Source of the DNA: Clostridia bacterium
Lineage (GTDB): Bacteria > Bacillota > Clostridia > Oscillospirales > CAG-272
Reading direction: 5' to 3'
Assembly: GCA_017619885.1 (NCBI GenBank)
Contig: JAFZRM010000213.1
Location: 1 to 45,334 of the forward strand
Length of the DNA: 45,334 nt
Shown here: one piece after another, positions 34,722 to 43,478 of the stretch
Layout: each line of letters starts with the position of its first letter
Numbering within the stretch: the first letter of the stretch is position 1
The notes under the pieces: model-generated
Database searches by the model: none
What the model was told of the DNA's origin: nothing
Seen by the model: only the letters and a program-made list of their open reading frames with translations
Translations under genes and position numbers: made by a program

Positions 34722-34777
34722 CGTTCATGGCGGCGGTAATTTCGCGGTCATTTGTCCGCCGTCGTTTGAAGTGTTTT

Positions 34778-37768
34778 TTAATAAAGCGCTCTGTACAGTG
34801 TCGTGAGCACGTTCGTGTCGGTTATTTTTTCGTTCGATATCACAAGAAGTCCGTCGCTTGTTACCGTAACAGCTTTGCCCGCCTTTTCTACCGGGGCGTT
34901 TGCTTTTACGTATTTAACACCGTAATGATCATATACGGTCTCGCCCGCGCAGTCTATACCGAGTATTTTCAGCGTGTCGACCGGAAGATAGAAATCATAG
35001 CCGGTCGCCAGAAGCGTCGTTTTCGTGCTGTCGCCGAGCTTCGTGAGCTTGCCGTTTATATATGCGCAATAGCCGTTGGATTTGAAGACCGCCATATCGG
35101 ATGTCAGGCACGCCGGGACCGCCGCCTTCGTCTCCTCCGTCGTGAAACGGTAGCAGAAACGCGCGTCCGGCGCGGCGTCGCCTTTATCGAGGAAGCACAT
35201 TATTTCGCCGTCGTTTACCGAATTGTCAGCCCATTTGAAATCGAGGAGCTTTCCGTTATAGCCTATGAGCGAGGCTTTGATTTTTATCTGTATCGTCTTT
35301 CCGTCGACCTTGTATTCCGCGTCGCCGACTTTTTCAAACTCCCAGCCGTCCTTGAATTTTTCTACCGAGGCTTTGCCGCCCTCTCCCGATCTGTTTATGA
35401 TATAATCGAAGCCGTACCAGCCCGTTTTATCGTCGTTATCCGATTTTATGAACAGATTCATCCAGTTGTCGCCCTCACGCGGCGTGATGTCCGCGGCGCA
35501 TTCCGCCATAAAGTACAGATATTCGTTATCGGAGCTTACCTTTGCCGTAAGTATGTCGTTTCTCCCGGTCTCGTTTATGTATCTCAATTTTCCGACGTTT
35601 GAGGCGTGGTTGCGCTTTATAGTATCTCCGTAAACGTCGCGGAATTCCGGCCCCACGGTGTACCACTGCACGGCGCTGCCGTCAAGGTCTATCGTGCTCT
35701 GACCGAAAGCCGCCTCCGGCGGACGCGAGCCCTTGTATCTTCTGACGTTTTGGACCATCTGATAATAGTAGTTATCCTTGAAGCCTCCCGTCATCGGCTC
35801 TATATCTCTCGAATACTCGGCGTTGAAGTTGTCGCAGTAGGTGTTTTTCGTATTGCCGCCCTTTGTAGACGTATATTCGCCCGCCATACGTTTTCCGGAG
35901 TCCTCATATCGGCCAGCCCACCATTCGTTCCAGCCGGTTATCATTATAAGCTCGGGATCTCTTTTGATGGCTTGGTCGAAGCATTCCTGGAAAGCAAGCC
36001 CGAGACCGCTCGTCTGCGGATAAAGACCGAAGCCCATGTTCCAGTCGCCCTGAGCGAGCTCAAATGGCTCGCCTGACTTTTTGGTGTAGCTTCTTCCGGC
36101 GTCGGTACCATAGCTTCCGTCAGCCCAGAAGCCGCACATGACCACCATCTGCTCGATGACGCGCTTGCCGTCGTCCTTGCGGAAGCCCGGTTTCTGCGGA
36201 TACATCGAAGCCCACGGCCAGCAATCGTAGCCGCTTCTGTTTTTATACCAGCCGTTGCCGAATTCCTCGGCTTCCGTAGCCCATGAAATACGTATCGTAA
36301 AGAAATCCTTTTGTTCCTCGGATATGTCGAAAAGCGAGGATATGAACATAAGCACCGGCTTGCCGCGCCATTTGAACCATATATCCTCATACAGATTCGC
36401 TTTATACAGGTCGTTCCATATCGCGTCGAATTCCTTTTTGTCCGTGTCTTTTAAAATAAAGCAGACGTCGGGAGTTTTCAGGCCCTCTTTTCTCATTTTC
36501 GTCCATACGCGCATGACCGCCTCGTAATTCGTTTTATAAAGAGGACCGTTCGTCGCGTCGAAATAGACGAAGTCTATACCTGCCTCCGCTAACATCGCGC
36601 CGTGTTTGCGGAGCACCCATTCGTCGTTTGTACAGTAGTAGCCGAAATACGGCTGTCCCCAGTAGTGAAGGCTTCCCAATTCGCCCTGGTTTATCGTTTT
36701 CCATACCTGATCCATACCGCCGTCTTCATAAGCCGTCGTATGGTCGTATACGGGCTTGCCCGTATTCGCCTCCTCGTGCCAGAGAAAATAGAATATACCG
36801 ACCTTTTTTTCATTCGGCGTAACGCCCGAATACGTTATTTCTCTGCCGACGTCGTCGTACGCCGTCCAGGTGTCGGCGTGTATGTCGACGGTGTTCTGCT
36901 TTATGCCGTCGTTTTCTCCGCCTGTAACGACAGTTTTCATAAGACCGTCGCACGAATAATCGGTTATAACGGCGTCCTGCGGCAGGATGTGGCTCCAGAG
37001 GTGGAAATAACCGCATTTCGGGATTTCCTTATCGACGGTGTCAGTCAGCTTCGTTTCGGTTTCGCCGGGCTTATACAGACCGTAGCTTTTACCGTCGATC
37101 TTTACGATTGCGATCTCGTGATAATCCGCGCCGCCGTAAATCGTTATCGTGTTCGACACGGGATCGTCGACGATCCTTATCTTCTCGCCTTCCGATACGT
37201 CGATGCCGCTGTCCGTGTACGTCGTCTCGGGCCATTCGCCCATCCTCATGCCTATTTTGGTGTTTCTTATGGCGAGCCATACGCCGGTGTGCGCGGTCGG
37301 GTCGTTTGTCGGTTCGGCAAGCCTTAAACCGATGAAAATGGTAAACCACCTGTACTGACCGCTTTTGGCGGGATTTTTGAGCGTGAAGGAATACGTCGAT
37401 TTTCCGGTATCGGACGACGGAAATTTCGTGTAAACTCCGCCGACGTCGTCCTTCGGGTACGTTATCGTGCCGTCCTTTGTAACGACGTTTCTGACAAAGC
37501 CGAAATAACCGTCCTCAGAGCCGCCGTTTTTGAATTCGACGCTCGTGCTCTTAAGCTCGGTCTTGTCTTCAAAATCATAATCTTTAAGCGTTATGTCGGT
37601 ATTGAGGCTGTACTCGATCGCGGGCGCGGACGTATCCTCCGGCTCCGTCGTCACCGCTTCGGTCGCCGTTATATCCGTCGTCGTCTCAGACGTGCCGCCG
37701 CACGATACGAGCGCCGTTAAAGCGAAAAAAGCTGACAAAAAATAACATAAAAGTCTTTTGATTTTCAT
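34778..37768 (-). CDS. Large secreted lipoprotein, probable carbohydrate-active enzyme (family not recognised)
   Basis: Signal and lipobox MKIKRLLCYFLSAFFALTALVSCGG, then a T/E-rich linker. The central region (VGIFYFLWHEE...HYWGQPYFGYY...AGIDFVYFDATNG) looks like a TIM-barrel glycosidase. RBS GAGGAGG lies upstream. The function is inferred. Confidence 0.45.
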   Translation of the reverse strand: MKIKRLLCYFLSAFFALTALVSCGGTSETTTDITATEAVTTEPEDTSAPAIEYSLNTDITLKDYDFEDKTELKSTSVEFKNGGSEDGYFGFVRNVVTKDGTITYPKDDVGGVYTKFPSSDTGKSTYSFTLKNPAKSGQYRWFTIFIGLRLAEPTNDPTAHTGVWLAIRNTKIGMRMGEWPETTYTDSGIDVSEGEKIRIVDDPVSNTITIYGGADYHEIAIVKIDGKSYGLYKPGETETKLTDTVDKEIPKCGYFHLWSHILPQDAVITDYSCDGLMKTVVTGGENDGIKQNTVDIHADTWTAYDDVGREITYSGVTPNEKKVGIFYFLWHEEANTGKPVYDHTTAYEDGGMDQVWKTINQGELGSLHYWGQPYFGYYCTNDEWVLRKHGAMLAEAGIDFVYFDATNGPLYKTNYEAVMRVWTKMRKEGLKTPDVCFILKDTDKKEFDAIWNDLYKANLYEDIWFKWRGKPVLMFISSLFDISEEQKDFFTIRISWATEAEEFGNGWYKNRSGYDCWPWASMYPQKPGFRKDDGKRVIEQMVVMCGFWADGSYGTDAGRSYTKKSGEPFELAQGDWNMGFGLYPQTSGLGLAFQECFDQAIKRDPELIMITGWNEWWAGRYEDSGKRMAGEYTSTKGGNTKNTYCDNFNAEYSRDIEPMTGGFKDNYYYQMVQNVRRYKGSRPPEAAFGQSTIDLDGSAVQWYTVGPEFRDVYGDTIKRNHASNVGKLRYINETGRNDILTAKVSSDNEYLYFMAECAADITPREGDNWMNLFIKSDNDDKTGWYGFDYIINRSGEGGKASVEKFKDGWEFEKVGDAEYKVDGKTIQIKIKASLIGYNGKLLDFKWADNSVNDGEIMCFLDKGDAAPDARFCYRFTTEETKAAVPACLTSDMAVFKSNGYCAYINGKLTKLGDSTKTTLLATGYDFYLPVDTLKILGIDCAGETVYDHYGVKYVKANAPVEKAGKAVTVTSDGLLVISNEKITDTNVLTTLYRALY

Positions 37769-37835
37769 ATATGCCTCCTCGTTATCCGTTATTTTTCTTT
37801 ATTGATCCGCCGGCGGAAATGCTGATCTTTCGCAA

Positions 37836-37919
37836 TCATTCCCATCCCACCGTTGCCGGGGGCTTTGAGGTGATATCATAAACGACACGGTTTATCGAGC
37901 GTACTTTGTTCGTGATCCT
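37836..37919 (-). pseudogene. Orphan duplicate of the guaA 3' end (last 27 codons plus stop)
   Basis: The minus strand encodes [27 protein letters not shown]-stop. The intact guaA ends [27 protein letters not shown]-stop at 40534..40617. My manual alignment gives about 12 mismatches in 84 nt. Confidence 0.85.
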
Positions 37920-37981
37920 TCCGCGCCCGTCGGTGACGACGAGAACGGCGGTCAGAGGGTCGCGCCCGTCAGTCCTATCAT

Positions 37982-40341
37982 TTATTTTATGAATGCTGCC
38001 GATCTGACGTAGAAGACGTCGCCCGCGTCCGCCGCGGCGAAATAGTCGTAACGGAGCGCCTTCAGCGCGCCTTCATGAGTTTTGAACGAGCTCATCGGTA
38101 TCTCTATCGTGTGATATCCGCCGTCTTTTATGTATTCCGCCCTGACGGCATTGTCCTCCGTAGGCTCGGTGACGTTTCCGGCGCAGAGATACATTTCAAG
38201 CGTGTACGCGCTTCTTTTGTTCGTCTCCGGTATCATGTATTCGATCTCGATGCGGGAGAATACGGACGCGTCCTCAAAGGCGCCCGGGATAAGCGTGAAA
38301 TTCACGTCGTTTCCGGTCACCGTCAGCTTCAGAGCGTTTTCCGCCGGATCATACGAAGCGTCGGTCGCGTTCACGCCCGGCAGCGACGAGACTGCGTCTT
38401 CGCTGTCGAAGGTGATCTTTCCGTTTGAAAAACCGGCGACCTTTTTCATCTTCAGTGATCTTATGTAAATGCAGTCGCCTTCGGCGCAGTCGAAGAAATA
38501 ATCGAGACGGAGAAGATTTACCGTGCCCTGCCAGCATTTGTTCGACGAGGCGGGGAAGACGGCTTTGTGATAGACGCCGTCGGCGATGAGATTCGCCGTG
38601 ACGGAATTGCCGGCGACCGCGCCGCCGTATTCACCGCACGCGAGGAAAAGCTCCGCGGTGTACCGCTCTTTGCCGTTCGATTCCGGGAGCATATATTCGA
38701 TCACGACGGAATCGTAATCTTCCGCCTTCACGTCTTTATCCGAGTTGTCGGCAAAGCTGAGCGTCACGTAAACGTCGTCCGGGTTGTTTACCGTGAGCTT
38801 TGCCGCCCTCTCACTCCCGCTGTACGTTATCCCCGTATTGTGCGGATCCGTGAACAGTTTTTCCGTGCCTTCGACCGAGAAGTCAACGTCTGTCATGTCG
38901 AACAGCCCGTCTGTACCTTCCGGGAGTTTTCTGTTTTCCGAAAGGGAAGCGTTATCGGAAAACGATCTGTTTTCAGTGAATCTTTCCCTTATTTCGCCGA
39001 TATCGCCGGCGGTTATCAGATATCCGTATTCTATGGGCTCGAAGCTCACCAGTTTTATATCGGAAAGCGGCGCCAGATAGTTCGTGGAATCGGAGAGCGC
39101 GCTCATCGATCCGTCGTATTTATATCTTCCGGCGTGGAAAACGTCGACGTTCGGGGTGTAGACGCCGATGCCGTAGCCGTCGCGGTCGACCCACGCCGCC
39201 CAAGTCTCCGTGTTGCCGCGCGGTATCAGAAAGATGTTTTCGCCGCCGGAGGCGTCCACCCAGCTCGTAAGGTCGGACTTGAAGGCCAGCCTGTCCTGTG
39301 TCCACGGCTTTTTGCCGTAGTAATATACGAACGTGTCGAGATAGCTTACGGTATAGAACGCCGGAAGCTCCTGCAGAAGATACGGATGCTCAAATCCCGA
39401 GAAGTCCACGAATCTGTTGCCGACGCGAATGACGTTTCCGTCAAGCGTATACGTGTTCTCCATATACGACGGCGTAAGAGAGCCGTTCAGCGCCCAGTCC
39501 TTCGCCTGAGTTTTCACGTAGACCGAATCCGCCCCGATCTCAAGATCTATAAGACGCGACGGAGTCCCCGCGACGTCGCCGCCCTGTACCGGGTTGTAGT
39601 TCCATTTTGCGCCGTTGAACACGCCGGGATCGTATACGCCTTCAATTTTCGGCGTGCCGTAGTACGACTGCTGTACGAGTCTGCCGGTGTCGTGCTGGTT
39701 TATCAGGTTCTCAAGTCCTTCGACCTTGCAGTGCCTGTCCGCTATATACGATATTCCGCCGCCCCACGCAAGTCTGACGCCGAGGCGCAGATCACCGTTT
39801 TCGATATAGAAATTGCCGTCCGCGTCGGTCGCGGGGATCTGCACGCTTTCGGTCGTTATTTTCCCGAGCCCGAAACCGTACGTCCCGGGCAAAAGCGGAG
39901 AGACCTCCGCGTAAGCTATCCCGTCGGCGGATCCGCCGGACAGGAAGCCGCTGATCAGACCACGGAAATCCCCGTTTCCGGAAGCTTCGAGAAAGTACCG
40001 CTCGACTGCCGTTTCACCGTCTTTTTTCAGTGCGACGTCTATCACGCACGGCGCCGTGCAGCTGTATCCGATCCGGATGCGGTTGAAAGGAGCGCCGGCT
40101 TCCACGTCCGTCAACGTGAACTTTACGGTTTCGTCCGAATAATACATACCGTCCCTTTCTTCATATTTACCCGATACCTCGTATATTTTCTCCTCCGCGG
40201 TAACGGCGTCCGTATCCGTAACGGCGTCCGTAACGGTATCCGTAACCGTTCCGCCCCCGCATGACGGCAGCGTTATGAGTGCTGCCGCGGCGAGCGCCGG
40301 CGCGAGAATCTTTTTTATTGCTGTTGAAACGTTCGTTTCAT
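37982..40341 (-). CDS. Secreted lipoprotein-like protein with repeated beta-sandwich modules; start region out of frame
   Basis: The long ORF 37982..40405 has no in-frame ATG or GTG before its signal sequence ([23 protein letters not shown]). The ORF-track 'M' is a TTG inside a -35 box. The RBS-preceded ATG at 40341 is offset by one nucleotide. Two C-terminal modules of about 150 aa are paralogous to each other. Confidence 0.55.
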
Positions 40342-40376
40342 ACGGCGCCTCCCGGTCAACCTGTTCTCCATTATGT

Positions 40377-40405
40377 ATTCTACCATATATTTCCGGTATC
40401 GTCAA
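40377..40405 (-). promoter_or_regulatory. Sigma-A-type promoter of the 807-aa lipoprotein gene
   Basis: The minus strand reads TTGACG (40405..40400), a 17-nt spacer, then TAGAAT (40382..40377). GGGAGG (40353..40348) and ATG 40341 follow. Confidence 0.6.
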
Positions 40406-40439
40406 GAGCGTATCCGTTACGAGCGGTTAATTTTATGAT

Positions 40440-40471
40440 AACGAAAACGGCGCCGCCCGCGCGGTGCCGTT
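40440..40471 (-). terminator. Intrinsic terminator after guaA
   Basis: On the minus strand, AACGGCACC-GCGCGGGC-GGCGCCGTT (one mismatch) is followed by TTTCGTT. Confidence 0.55.
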
Positions 40472-40533
40472 GCATATCGCGTTTTATTCGGTCTTCATCG
40501 GGAAAAGTCTGCCGTTTCTTTCTTCCTAAGGTT

Positions 40534-42060
40534 TCATTCCCATTCCACTGTTGCCGGGGGCTTTGACGTGATATCGTATACCACGCGGTTGATAGAGCGG
40601 ACCTCGTTCGTGATCCTTCTGCTCGCACGGTCGAGCACTTCGTACGGAACGCGCGTCCAGTCGGCGGTCATGAAGTCGTCCGTCGTCACGGCGCGCAGTG
40701 CGACGGTATAGCCGTACGTACGCGCGTCGCCCATAACGCCGACGCTCTGCGTGTCGGTCAGCACGGCGAAATACTGGCTCGGTCTGTCGCCGGCTTTTTC
40801 AAGCTCTTCTCTGAATATCGCGTCCGCTTCGCGAAGCGTGTCCGCTTTATCCTTCGTTATCTCTCCGATTATCCTCACCGCGAGGCCGGGTCCGGGGAAC
40901 GGCTGGCGCATAACGAGCTTTTCCGGTATGCCGAGCTTCAGACCGACGGCGCGGACCTCGTCCTTGAACAGCTCGCGCAGAGGCTCGACGATGCCCTCAA
41001 AGTCCATCACCGACGGCAGACCGCCGACGTTGTGGTGGCTTTTTATAGTGGACGCGTCGCCTTTGCCGCTCTCCACGACGTCCGGATATATCGTGCCCTG
41101 CACGAGATAATCGACTTTGCCTATGACGCGGCTCTGCTCCTCGAATATCCTGATGAACAGCTCGCCTATGATCTTGCGTTTCTTCTCCGGCTCCTTTACT
41201 CCCGCGAGCGCCGACAGGAACCTGTCTTCGGCGTTTACGCGGATCAGCTTCATGTTGAATTTATCGCGGAAAACGCGCTCGACGTCGTCGCCCTCGTTTT
41301 TGCGCAGCAGCCCGTGATCCACGAAAACACACGTCAGCGCGTCCCCTATGGCGCGGTGCATCAGAACGGCGGCGACGGAGGAGTCCACACCGCCGGACAG
41401 CGCGCACAAAACGCGCTTGCCCTGAAGCTCGCTTCTGTATTTTTCGACCGATCTTTCAATGAAATCATCCGTCCGCCAGTCTCCGGCGCAGCCGCATATA
41501 CTGAACAGAAAGTTGTGAAGCATCGTTTTTCCGTATTCGGTGTGCGTCACCTCGGGGTGGAACTGCACGCCGTATATCCGGCGGGACACGTCCGCCATTG
41601 CGGCGCAGGGGCAGTTGTCCGTGTGCGCGGTGACGTCAAAACCGTCCGGCACGGCTTTTACGTAATCCGTGTGGCTCATCCAGCAGACGCTCTGCGACGG
41701 CACTTTGTCAAACAGTTTGCCGCCTCCCGTGTAAACTACGGTCTTGCCGTATTCGCTTATGTTTCCGGCGGAGCATATCTGTCCGCCCGCCATATACGCG
41801 ATCAGCTGATGACCGTAGCAGATGCCGAGTACGGGAATGCCGGCGTCGAGTATGCCCTTGTCGTAATGCGGCGAGGTCTCGTCGTAAACGCTGTTCGGAC
41901 CGCCGGTGAATATCACGCCTTTATAGCCCCGCTCCTTTATTTCGGCGAGGCTGATTTTGTTATAGGGGAATATCTCGGCGAAAACGCCCTGCTCGCGCAC
42001 GCGGCGCGCTATAAGCAGATCGTACTGGCCGCCGAAATCGAGAACGAGTATCTTTTCCAT
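40534..42060 (-). CDS. guaA: GMP synthase (glutamine-hydrolysing)
   Basis: The N-terminal GATase region contains GICYGHQL. The ATP-PPase P-loop is [10 protein letters not shown]. The C-terminus reads [12 protein letters not shown]. Confidence 0.95.
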
Positions 42061-43478
42061 TATACCGATATCTCCGAATCCATATCTTTAGCCTGCGCGA
42101 TGATCGGCGCAAGCTTGTTAACGTATCTTTCGACCTGCTCGCCGCATCTGCCGGTGTAAAGCGACGGGTCGAGCACCGAGTTCATCTCGTCCTCGGTCAT
42201 GCCGAATTCGGGATGCTTTGAAAGCGAGGAGATCAGATCGCAGCCCTCGCCGTTCTTCATCTTCGCCGTTGCCTCCATCGAAGCCTGTCTTATGACCTCG
42301 TGAAGCTTCTGCCTGTCGCCGCCGCGCTTGACGGCTTCCATCAGCAGATTTTCCGTTGCGATGAACGGCAGATATTCGCGGACCGTGCGTTCGATTATCT
42401 TTTCGTTCACGACCATGCCGGACGTGACGTTCATCATCAGCCGCAGAATCGAGTCGGCGCACAAAAACCCTTCGGGCATCGAGATGCGGCGGTTTGCCGA
42501 ATCGTCGAGCGTGCGCTCGAGCCACTGAGACGACGCGGTCATATAAGCGTTGGCGCCGTCCGCCATAAGATAGCGGGACAGAGAACAGATGCGCTCGCAT
42601 CTCATCGGGTTGCGCTTGTACGCCATCGCGGACGAGCCGATCTGGCTGCTCTCGAACGGCTCCTCGACCTGTCTGTCGTGCTGAAGCAGACGCATGTCGC
42701 AGCCGAATTTGTAAGCGCTCTGCGCTATCGCAGACAAGGCGTTCAGGATCGCCGAATCCGTCTTTCTCGTGTAAGTCTGACCGCAGACGTCAAAGCAGGA
42801 ATCAAAGCCGAACTGCTCACAGATCATTTCGTTCATGCGGTCGATCTTTTCGCCGTCGCCGCCGAAAAGATCCATGAAGCTCGCCTCGGTGCCGGTCGTT
42901 CCGCGGCAGCCGAGCAGCTTCAGCCTGCCGGCGGTGAAATCGAGCTCCTCCAGATCCGATACGAGATCCTGCAGCCACAGAGACGCGCGTTTGCCGACGG
43001 TCACGAGCTGCGCCGGCTGATAATGCGTATAGCCGAGCGTCGGCAGATCCTTGTATTTGAGCGCGAACGCGGCTAGATTCTTTATGACGCAGAGCAGCTC
43101 GGCGCGTATGTATGCGAGCGCGTCGCGGTAGATTATCATATCAGCGTTGTCGGTGACGTAGCAGCTCGTCGCGCCGAGGTGGATTATCCCCGCCGCCGAC
43201 GGCGCCGCCTTTCCGTACGCGTGCACGTGAGCCATGACGTCGTGGCGGACCCTTTTCTCGTCCTCCGCGACGAAGTCGTAGTCGATGTCCGTTACGTGCG
43301 CTTCAAGCTCCGCTATCTGTTCCGCACTCACCGGCAGACCGAGCTCGTGCTCGGCGCGTGCGAGGGCGACCCAGAGCCGCCTCCACGTCTGATAACGCGT
43401 GTCGGCGGAAAAGAGCCCGAGCATGTATCCCGAAGCGTAACGCGACGATAACGGCGATTCGTATTTGTCCCTGCTCAT
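42060..43478 (-). CDS. purB: Adenylosuccinate lyase
   Basis: N-terminal SPLSSRYAS... and the fumarate-lyase signature region [11 protein letters not shown]. The stop overlaps the guaA start (TAATG). RBS AGGAGGA lies upstream. Confidence 0.93.

Follow-up and report, generated by a model that had tools for sequence, protein, structure and literature searches.

A second guaA 3’ end downstream of guaA in an uncultured Clostridia bacterium, probably the scar of a recombination event

Why does the end of a housekeeping gene occur twice, in the same orientation and 2.7 kb apart, in the genome of an uncultured bacterium? The question is raised by a 45,334-nucleotide (nt) contig of a Clostridia bacterium (JAFZRM010000213.1, assembly GCA_017619885.1), the whole of which is referred to here as the window. 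In it, the 3’ end of guaA, the gene for GMP synthase, is found again beyond a large lipoprotein gene (p807) and before a second one (p996). The genome from which the window comes (G000) is a fragmented metagenome-assembled genome (MAG) of 218 contigs and 2.59 Mb, 82% complete. We conclude, with a probability of roughly 60%, that the downstream copy, hereafter the orphan, once ended an earlier guaA allele and was displaced by one-sided homology-facilitated illegitimate recombination. The features on which the argument turns, in window coordinates, are the following:

42060-43478, purB, directly upstream of guaA
40534..42060, minus strand, guaA, GMP synthase, 508 amino acids (aa), with the Pfam domains GATase and GMP_synt_C
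40534..40617, minus strand, resident repeat copy, comprising the last 27 guaA codons and the stop, from sequence alignment
40484..40525, minus strand, remnant of a GH43 lipoprotein gene, its last 13 codons plus stop (EERNGRLFPMKTE and stop), 42 nt
40440..40483, minus strand, hairpin and T-run, originally the GH43 terminator and now behind guaA
40377..40405, minus strand, promoter-like site of the 807-aa gene, TTGACG-17-TAGAAT
37982..40341, minus strand, p807, lipoprotein gene with an 807-aa open reading frame (ORF), no Pfam family
37963..37981, minus strand, native 3’ flank of p807, 19 nt, common to relatives
37920..37962, minus strand, remnant of dinB/IMS (Y-family DNA polymerase), codons ~26-42, 43 nt
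37836..37919, minus strand, the orphan, guaA codons 482-508 plus stop, assigned to another guaA lineage and now non-coding
37812..37835, minus strand, native guaA-downstream sequence TTGCGAAAGATCAGCATTTCCGCC, 24 nt, which would have travelled with the orphan
34763..37811, minus strand, cassette of the 996-aa lipoprotein gene p996 (gene 34778-37768), the presumed former neighbour of guaA

The two copies of the repeat align without gaps and differ at 12 of 84 bases. Nine codons carry only synonymous third-position differences, and an amino acid is changed in two codons of the 27, E to K in the orphan by two bases and E to G by one, while the stop is kept. This alignment agrees with the first-pass annotation of this DNA, made by a model from the letters, which had described a same-orientation duplicate of the guaA end with about 12 differences, two altered residues and a retained stop. 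By the Nei-Gojobori method, synonymous divergence (dS) between the copies is 0.85 against a nonsynonymous divergence (dN) of 0.033, and the probability that 12 random substitutions would leave two or fewer amino-acid-changing codons is ~1e-4. Because the divergence is almost purely synonymous, both copies evolved inside working guaA genes, and the annotation's view that they diverged as parts of functional genes of different lineages is borne out. The orphan is non-coding, since no start codon opening its guaA frame was found. Its K and G are unique, all 13 functional genus-level guaA ends compared having E at both positions, and these two replacements fit relaxed constraint or decay after displacement.

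The whole genome holds only these two copies of the repeat (E 4e-22). Among 401 genomes of the family, the nearest relative of the orphan is the resident end itself (86%; next best 80%), with 12 differences as against 15-27 to the other sampled guaA ends. Exact and degenerate pattern scans for a donor of the orphan, run over JGI metagenome and GTDB genome contigs, returned nothing, or chance matches in unrelated phyla. The annotation's idea of tracing the orphan through guaA genes to its closest lineage therefore succeeded in part: a nearest relative was identified, a donor lineage was not found. The longest identical run between the copies is the 17-mer TCAAAGCCCCCGGCAAC; here too the annotation had the run right, and only its use as an attachment (att) core falls away, the 17 nt being conserved coding sequence common to many guaA genes.

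The layout of the locus is not an assembly artefact, because it recurs in two other contigs. A 71.7-kb ENA contig (L078) is 99.98% identical to the window over 12.8 kb in the same order, and in a strain ~96% identical from another sample (L085) the 3’ end of p807 is followed by an identical orphan and by p996. That the assembler joined two strains of the metagenome bin into a chimera is hardly credible. Such an error might be suspected from the fragmentation of the MAG and from the contigs of relatives, which often break at the guaA end, but the same junctions are present in the longer independent contig and in the ~96% identical strain, and with identity between the copies extending over 17-22 nt at most, an assembler would not be misled. 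Apart from the 1-nt deletion in p807 described below, the window and L078 differ only at position 40549, inside the resident repeat, where the window has A and L078 has G. The orphan has G here too, and with it the identical core grows to 22 nt; the difference could be a polymorphism or gene conversion between the repeat copies.

An integrase footprint and a recombination scar can be told apart by what the inner edge of the repeat joins and by whether the interior is syntenic chromosome. Downstream of the guaA stop, 8 nt (40526-40533) remain before the GH43 stub, which can be aligned with the 3’ ends of GH43 genes that are intact in the related genomes G005 and G008; the rest of the gene is deleted. 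The terminator block that follows is also found after the GH43 stop in G005, L079 and G007. Our terminator scan gave only a plus-strand candidate (40459-40482), the minus-strand reading being made by eye from the hairpin and T-run. The promoter-like site is kept upstream of the p807 orthologues in G002, G005, G007 and G008. Beyond p807, homology of the flank to G005, G002, G008 and L079 stops at ~37963-37965, and the 43 nt that follow match dinB of L079 (BLASTN 56 nt, 79%, E 5e-5; translation GRDPLT..LVV.D); the dinB gene of G008 carries the Pfam domain IMS. No dinB homologue was detectable elsewhere in the window genome assembly. In an early MAFFT alignment these 43 nt upstream of the orphan had been taken for diverged guaA, a reading that was rejected because they align to dinB codons 26-42.

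The same genes stand together in relatives. Orthologues of p807 (76-95% aa identity) lie 0.4-11 kb downstream of guaA in G002, G003, G005, G008 and L079. The order in G008 is guaA, GH43 lipoprotein gene, p807, dinB; L079 has p807 and then dinB, and G005 has guaA with the GH43 start on one contig and the GH43 end with p807 on another, consistent with the G008 order. Identity between the p807 block of the window and the blocks downstream of guaA in G005 and L079 is 94-95%. Judged by these comparisons of sequence, the bracketed 2.7 kb is part of the normal guaA-downstream chromosome of sister lineages, with stubs of both neighbour genes. The annotation had proposed a decayed island, or one mobilised by a recombinase in trans, bounded by the repeats; an interior of ordinary chromosome carrying GH43 and dinB stubs speaks against it. 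Its inventory of the segment was correct for the promoter and the 807-aa gene, credited guaA with what is the terminator of GH43, and missed both remnants. It had rightly reported the absence of a recombinase between the copies, where the only gene-size ORF is p807. Neither does the GC content over 30-45 kb give the island signal that it had thought worth looking for, with 0.51-0.56 in p996 and p807 vs 0.56-0.60 around them.

The orphan is joined directly to the dinB stub. The bases at this junction are ambiguous, GACGAGAGCAGGA / GAGCAGGA on the dinB side and GCGAGCAGAAGGA / GAGCAGAAGGA on the guaA side, and the junction of dinB codon ~42 with guaA codon ~481 reads as a microhomology joint with GAGCAG(G/A)A-type bases and not as an att boundary. 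Both edges of the dinB stub are illegitimate junctions. A 10-nt direct repeat, GACGGGCGCG, lies at both of these edges (37926-37935 and 37964-37973); its second copy departs from the dinB consensus at three positions, becoming identical to the first. The pair may go back to templated repair, or may have arisen by chance, the DNA being GC-rich.

The guaA 3’ end is itself an actively used att site in this genus. The annotation had named it as an integration site, and this is upheld both by the literature and by the relative G007. The att core of GIsul2 at guaA is GAGTGGGA (PMC9376610), and streptococcal integrative and conjugative elements (ICEs) as well as integrative mobilizable elements (IMEs) have 12-54-bp repeats that comprise only the exact guaA 3’ end (PMC4701971, PMC5357655). 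G007 carries a 13.8-kb IME directly after the guaA stop (L070, G007:C332, 982-14770), with DUF6076, a tyrosine integrase (Phage_integrase, SAM_3 and Arm-DNA-bind_4), AAA_25, a Mob_Pre relaxase and an LHH nuclease toxin/SUKH immunity pair. It ends in GAATTAAGCGAGTGGGAGTGA, followed by the sequence that lies directly after guaA in G005 and G008, and a second such remnant is found 0.5 kb further on. Miniature derivatives occur in other relatives. Downstream of guaA, G006 (L072, G006:C64, 3817-4434) and G008 (L037, G008:C22, 3279-4268) have tandem units of ~303 nt, and G008 (one unit) and L084 have units with a 23S-rRNA-IVP gene; in the units of G006, G008 and L084 the last ~35-130 nt are those of the G007 element, with the 12-mer GARTGGGARTRA added. 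This 12-mer contains the GAGTGGGA core, and in length it agrees with the streptococcal repeats. Genome-wide in G000 it is found only in guaA, at the end of a guaA paralogue and at one site at chance expectation.

Could the window then contain a further element of this kind, with p807 on it and an attP that imitates the 3’ end of guaA, with the 84-nt repeats as attL and attR and an integrase that was lost or acts in trans? The proven att site, the IME of G007 at exactly this place and its miniature derivatives all favour it, as do the direct orientation of the repeats and the fact that one hybrid copy keeps guaA intact. We nonetheless consider it improbable. Real att repeats at this locus are of ~12 nt (GARTGGGARTRA, GAGTGGGA-type) and lie at the very end of guaA (E-W-E-stop), whereas the window repeat has 84 nt, is 14% diverged, extends 72 nt further upstream, and at its inner edge meets the dinB stub and not element DNA. 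What lies between the repeats is chromosome in syntenic order, with a stub of each neighbour and no recombinase, the bases after the two stops are unrelated, and the 17-nt core is conserved coding sequence. The annotation had allowed for a guaA-targeting recombinase elsewhere in the genome; of the G007 integrase, which targets guaA, the window genome has no orthologue, the best match being 25% identical and on another contig. An empty site in relatives is predicted by recombination as well.

What, then, was next to guaA before? The bases after the two stops are unrelated, the resident end being followed by sequence beginning AACCTTAG and the orphan by sequence beginning TTGCGAAAG. In the 147-kb contig L081, the order is purA, purB, a 262-aa gene, guaA, 415 nt and an orthologue of p996 (93% nt identity), and the bases after the guaA stop, TTGCAAATGATCCTTTCCACC, match those after the orphan over the first ~12-27 nt. 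This order supports the annotation's proposal of an insertion between guaA and the 996-aa gene; the empty-site gene order that it had predicted for relatives is present in L081, where the guaA allele is a distant one, differing from the orphan at 24 of 84 positions, and the spacer has 415 nt. L084 is ~96% identical to the window; there the attR of a small guaA-targeting element, ending GAATCAAGCGACTTGAAATGA, is directly followed by the same 24 nt and p996. Because of the order in L081 and of the post-stop 24 nt with p996 in L084, the arrangement native to this lineage appears to be guaA followed by TTGCGAAAG and p996, with the caveat that the L084 contig starts inside the element, so that its guaA is off the contig. 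The spacer between the orphan stop and p996 had also been considered as a remnant of p807 codons 150-159 (GATCAGC..CCGGCGGATC), but its first 24 nt match the guaA downstream sequence of L081 better.

These downstream bases also bear on a local origin of the repeat, in which the genome would have duplicated its own guaA end (84 nt or longer) with insertion of p807, and a diverged allele would later have overwritten the resident 3’ part. Such a course of events has in its favour that orphan and resident end are mutual nearest relatives (12 differences vs 15-27), that guaA alleles are mosaic, and that the polymorphic resident base at 40549 matches the orphan. It is very doubtful all the same: the post-stop sequences are wholly different, those of the orphan match the native guaA downstream sequence of other lineages, and an extra replacement event would be needed.

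guaA is the conserved left anchor of a variable region. Its orthologues are present in the genus, across which purB-guaA is conserved and offers a homologous anchor on one side. Compared with G005, the nearest species representative (L041), guaA of the window is ~99-100% identical in nt over bases 270-810, while later 90-nt windows are mostly at 80-93%, with one at 98%. guaA is a recombination mosaic between close relatives (G000 and G005), and breakpoints inside it are common. The 3’ part of the G005 gene is closer to G008 and G011 (0.89-0.96), and the 3’ half of that gene was itself imported from a G008/G011-like lineage. An attempt to polarise the event with G005 failed for this reason.

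The sequences themselves show the junctions and gene stubs, the syntenic place of the insert in relatives, a gene order without the insert and a divergence that is almost purely synonymous; by what mechanism the event took place, which of the blocks was the newcomer and in what order the deletions came about we infer. The ancestor would have had guaA, a spacer of ~24 nt or more, and p996. Incoming DNA from a sister lineage, with guaA, GH43, p807 and dinB in this order, would have undergone homologous recombination at its left end within the conserved purB-guaA, and its right end, early in dinB, would have been joined illegitimately at microhomology to codon ~481 of the resident guaA. Because the incoming DNA would have brought a complete guaA 3’ end, the gene would have stayed intact. 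The old last 27 codons, the stop and the native downstream bases would thereby have been pushed 2.7 kb downstream, non-coding, before p996, where the orphan and 24 nt of native flank are retained today. Most of GH43 and dinB up to codon ~25 would have been lost in further microhomology deletions, in the donor or afterwards. One-sided recombination of this kind would explain the synonymous-only divergence, as that of two functional alleles, and the two unique replacements of the orphan; it would likewise account for the syntenic interior with its stubs, the unrelated post-stop sequences and the missing recombinase.

Several points weigh against this account. Firstly, an intact guaA with the orphan's allele directly before TTGCGAAAG and p996 was not found in close relatives. 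Secondly, the direction may have been the opposite one, since the guaA’-p996 block could equally have been appended to a GH43-p807-dinB chromosome. Thirdly, there are three illegitimate junctions (guaA stop to GH43 stub, p807 flank to dinB codon 26, and dinB codon 42 to guaA codon 482), which call for later deletions or for a donor already deleted; a single clean event does not account for them. Lastly, the DNA would have had to enter these uncultured Clostridia, perhaps by transformation or by conjugative mobilisation. If recombination did produce the orphan, there should be strains in which an intact guaA with the orphan's allele (E at both positions and at most two other differences) stands directly before TTGCGAAAGATCAGC and p996.

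The junction anatomy would be the same if two steps had been involved. A foreign segment with a second full guaA (guaA2, spacer, p996, GH2 and so on) would first have come to lie downstream of guaA, GH43, p807 and dinB, and a microhomology deletion from dinB codon 42 to guaA2 codon 481 would then have left the 84-nt stub. Several independent microhomology deletions at the locus lend this some plausibility, namely those behind the GH43 stub and the missing 5’ end of dinB, and the truncation of p807 at codon 159 via CCGGCGGATC in G007, L082 and L096. We think this two-step course rather unlikely: more events are needed than with one-sided recombination, none of the genomes examined has full-length guaA twice, be it in tandem or near p996, and G008 has no guaA copy within 30 kb downstream of dinB.

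Similar scars are found in relatives. In L079 (4220-4601), dinB codons 1-72 are fused to an orphan piece of p807 (codons 102-159), followed by p996; this is an independent scar whose architecture matches that of the guaA scar in the window, one gene further on. G002 has a second guaA 3’ end (L044, G002:C6, 2-190) of 189 nt, from codon 443 to 505 or beyond, 96% identical to its own guaA, with the last 88 nt identical; with its boundary at codon 443, it is an independent orphan with a different boundary. The G002 contigs (L044, L045, L042, L043) break at this repeat and have two continuations, an amylase/pullulanase cluster or a fragment running from SIMPL, MBL and ParE through a resolvase fragment to p807. 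In G007, L082/L083 and L096 a deletion fuses p807 codon 159 to the leader of p996 via CCGGCGGATC; the CCGGCGGATC shared with the spacer behind the orphan probably served only as microhomology for this G007- and L082-type deletion. The locus is a genus-wide hotspot downstream of guaA, where elements with an integrase also insert, and for the scar no integrase is needed. One locus thus shows both kinds of trace, 12-nt GAGTGGGA att repeats with an IME and miniature derivatives on the one hand, and orphan ends of 84-189 nt with illegitimate joints on the other.

How does this compare with known systems? Homology-facilitated illegitimate recombination, or displacement of 3’ ends, has been proposed for orphan immunity genes and for orphan effector or Rhs/CDI 3’ regions (Kirchberger et al. 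2017, PMC5361080; see also PMC3240628; De Vries & Wackernagel 2002, Prudhomme et al. 2002 and Meier & Wackernagel 2003, as cited in PMC5361080). As there, a conserved upstream gene serves as the homologous anchor and the other end is joined at microhomology, the newcomer provides the functional 3’ end while the ancestral piece becomes a downstream orphan, and independent scars recur at one hotspot. Here, by contrast, the anchor is a housekeeping purine gene, the cargo consists of surface lipoprotein and glycosidase-type genes and not of toxin/immunity modules, and it is from junction anatomy that we infer the mechanism. With the integrative elements at guaA (GIsul2, ICE_SmiB6_guaA and Tyr_3-family IMEs), the locus shares the target gene and the target codons E-W-E-stop, and relatives of the window carry such an element (G007) and short direct repeats from GAGTGGGA to TGA; the window repeat is different in its 84 nt, its 14% divergence, the dinB stub at its inner bound and the absence of an enclosed integrase or relaxase. 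The scar is of a known kind, in a newly documented hotspot, and leaves current concepts unchanged. The terminal codons of guaA, known to serve as an att site in streptococci and in Proteobacteria, do so in uncultured Clostridia too, which to judge by record names may come from ruminant-gut metagenomes, and large lipoprotein genes of unknown function are shuffled between lineages at this locus.

Integration of e14 / phage 21 in icd of E. coli leaves the 3’ pseudogene icdC. As in the window, a functional gene there bears a diverged, protein-conserving replacement 3’ end and the displaced native end lies downstream; in e14, however, a prophage that encodes its own integrase brings the replacement end, and the repeat stops at att boundaries, neither of which holds in the window. 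Cis-mobilizable elements (CIMEs) are integrase-less derivatives formed by tandem accretion at one att site. The ~303-nt and IVP-gene units of G006, G008 and L084 resemble them in sharing the right end of the G007 IME and ending in the att repeat, whereas the p807 segment of the window has no sequence in common with those element ends. One may speculate about a platform for the accretion of cassettes downstream of guaA in this family of uncultured gut Clostridia, on which guaA-targeting integrase elements and guaA-anchored recombination would together bring single-gene cassettes for surface proteins (p807, p996, GH43) to one site of expression and displace the older ones downstream. The orphan, with its near-core GGATGGGA, would then act as a secondary att site at which an integrase in trans excises or exchanges p807 as a cis-mobilizable unit. 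We think it improbable that the locus works in this way.

Some further observations concern the att elements. The G007 IME is bounded by GAGTGGGAATAA and GAGTGGGAGTGA, and near both of its ends has a 22-nt internal direct repeat, GCWTTGATACKATTTTGATACT, which may be an arm site. On contig C88 of the window genome (1317-2540) there is a Mob_Pre relaxase 90% identical to that of the G007 element, without a matching integrase. The ~303-nt units contain arrays of GC-rich mini-hairpins spaced by AATTATGA, and the mini-hairpin sequence is also present after the guaA paralogue on G000 contig C167 (113-185). In G316, of another genus of the same family, three tandem units of ~100-150 nt follow guaA (L055, G316:C32, 90-430), each ending in GGCTTAACAGTTGAGTGGGAATAA; these look like a second family of guaA-end mini-elements, of a different type.

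Others concern the two lipoprotein genes. The real start of p807 is probably the ATG at 40341. In the window a 1-nt deletion in an A-run at ~40339 shifts the frame, positions 40336-40341 reading ATGAAACG where L078 has ATGAAAACG, so that the ATG, ribosome-binding site and promoter no longer share the frame of the gene body; L078 has an intact gene, with 786 aa from the ATG. The deletion is either an assembly error or a strain-level frameshift. Since no promoter-like site was found in front of p996, this gene is probably co-transcribed with p807 through the orphan. The p996 cassette has sharp boundaries and stands in varying contexts. Its family has 14-21 detectable copies per genome in the genus, and near-identical orthologues of p996 (a cluster of 24) occur in at least five different neighbourhoods: behind guaA, p807, ROK or a GLUG-repeat protein, and between TetR and HTH genes.

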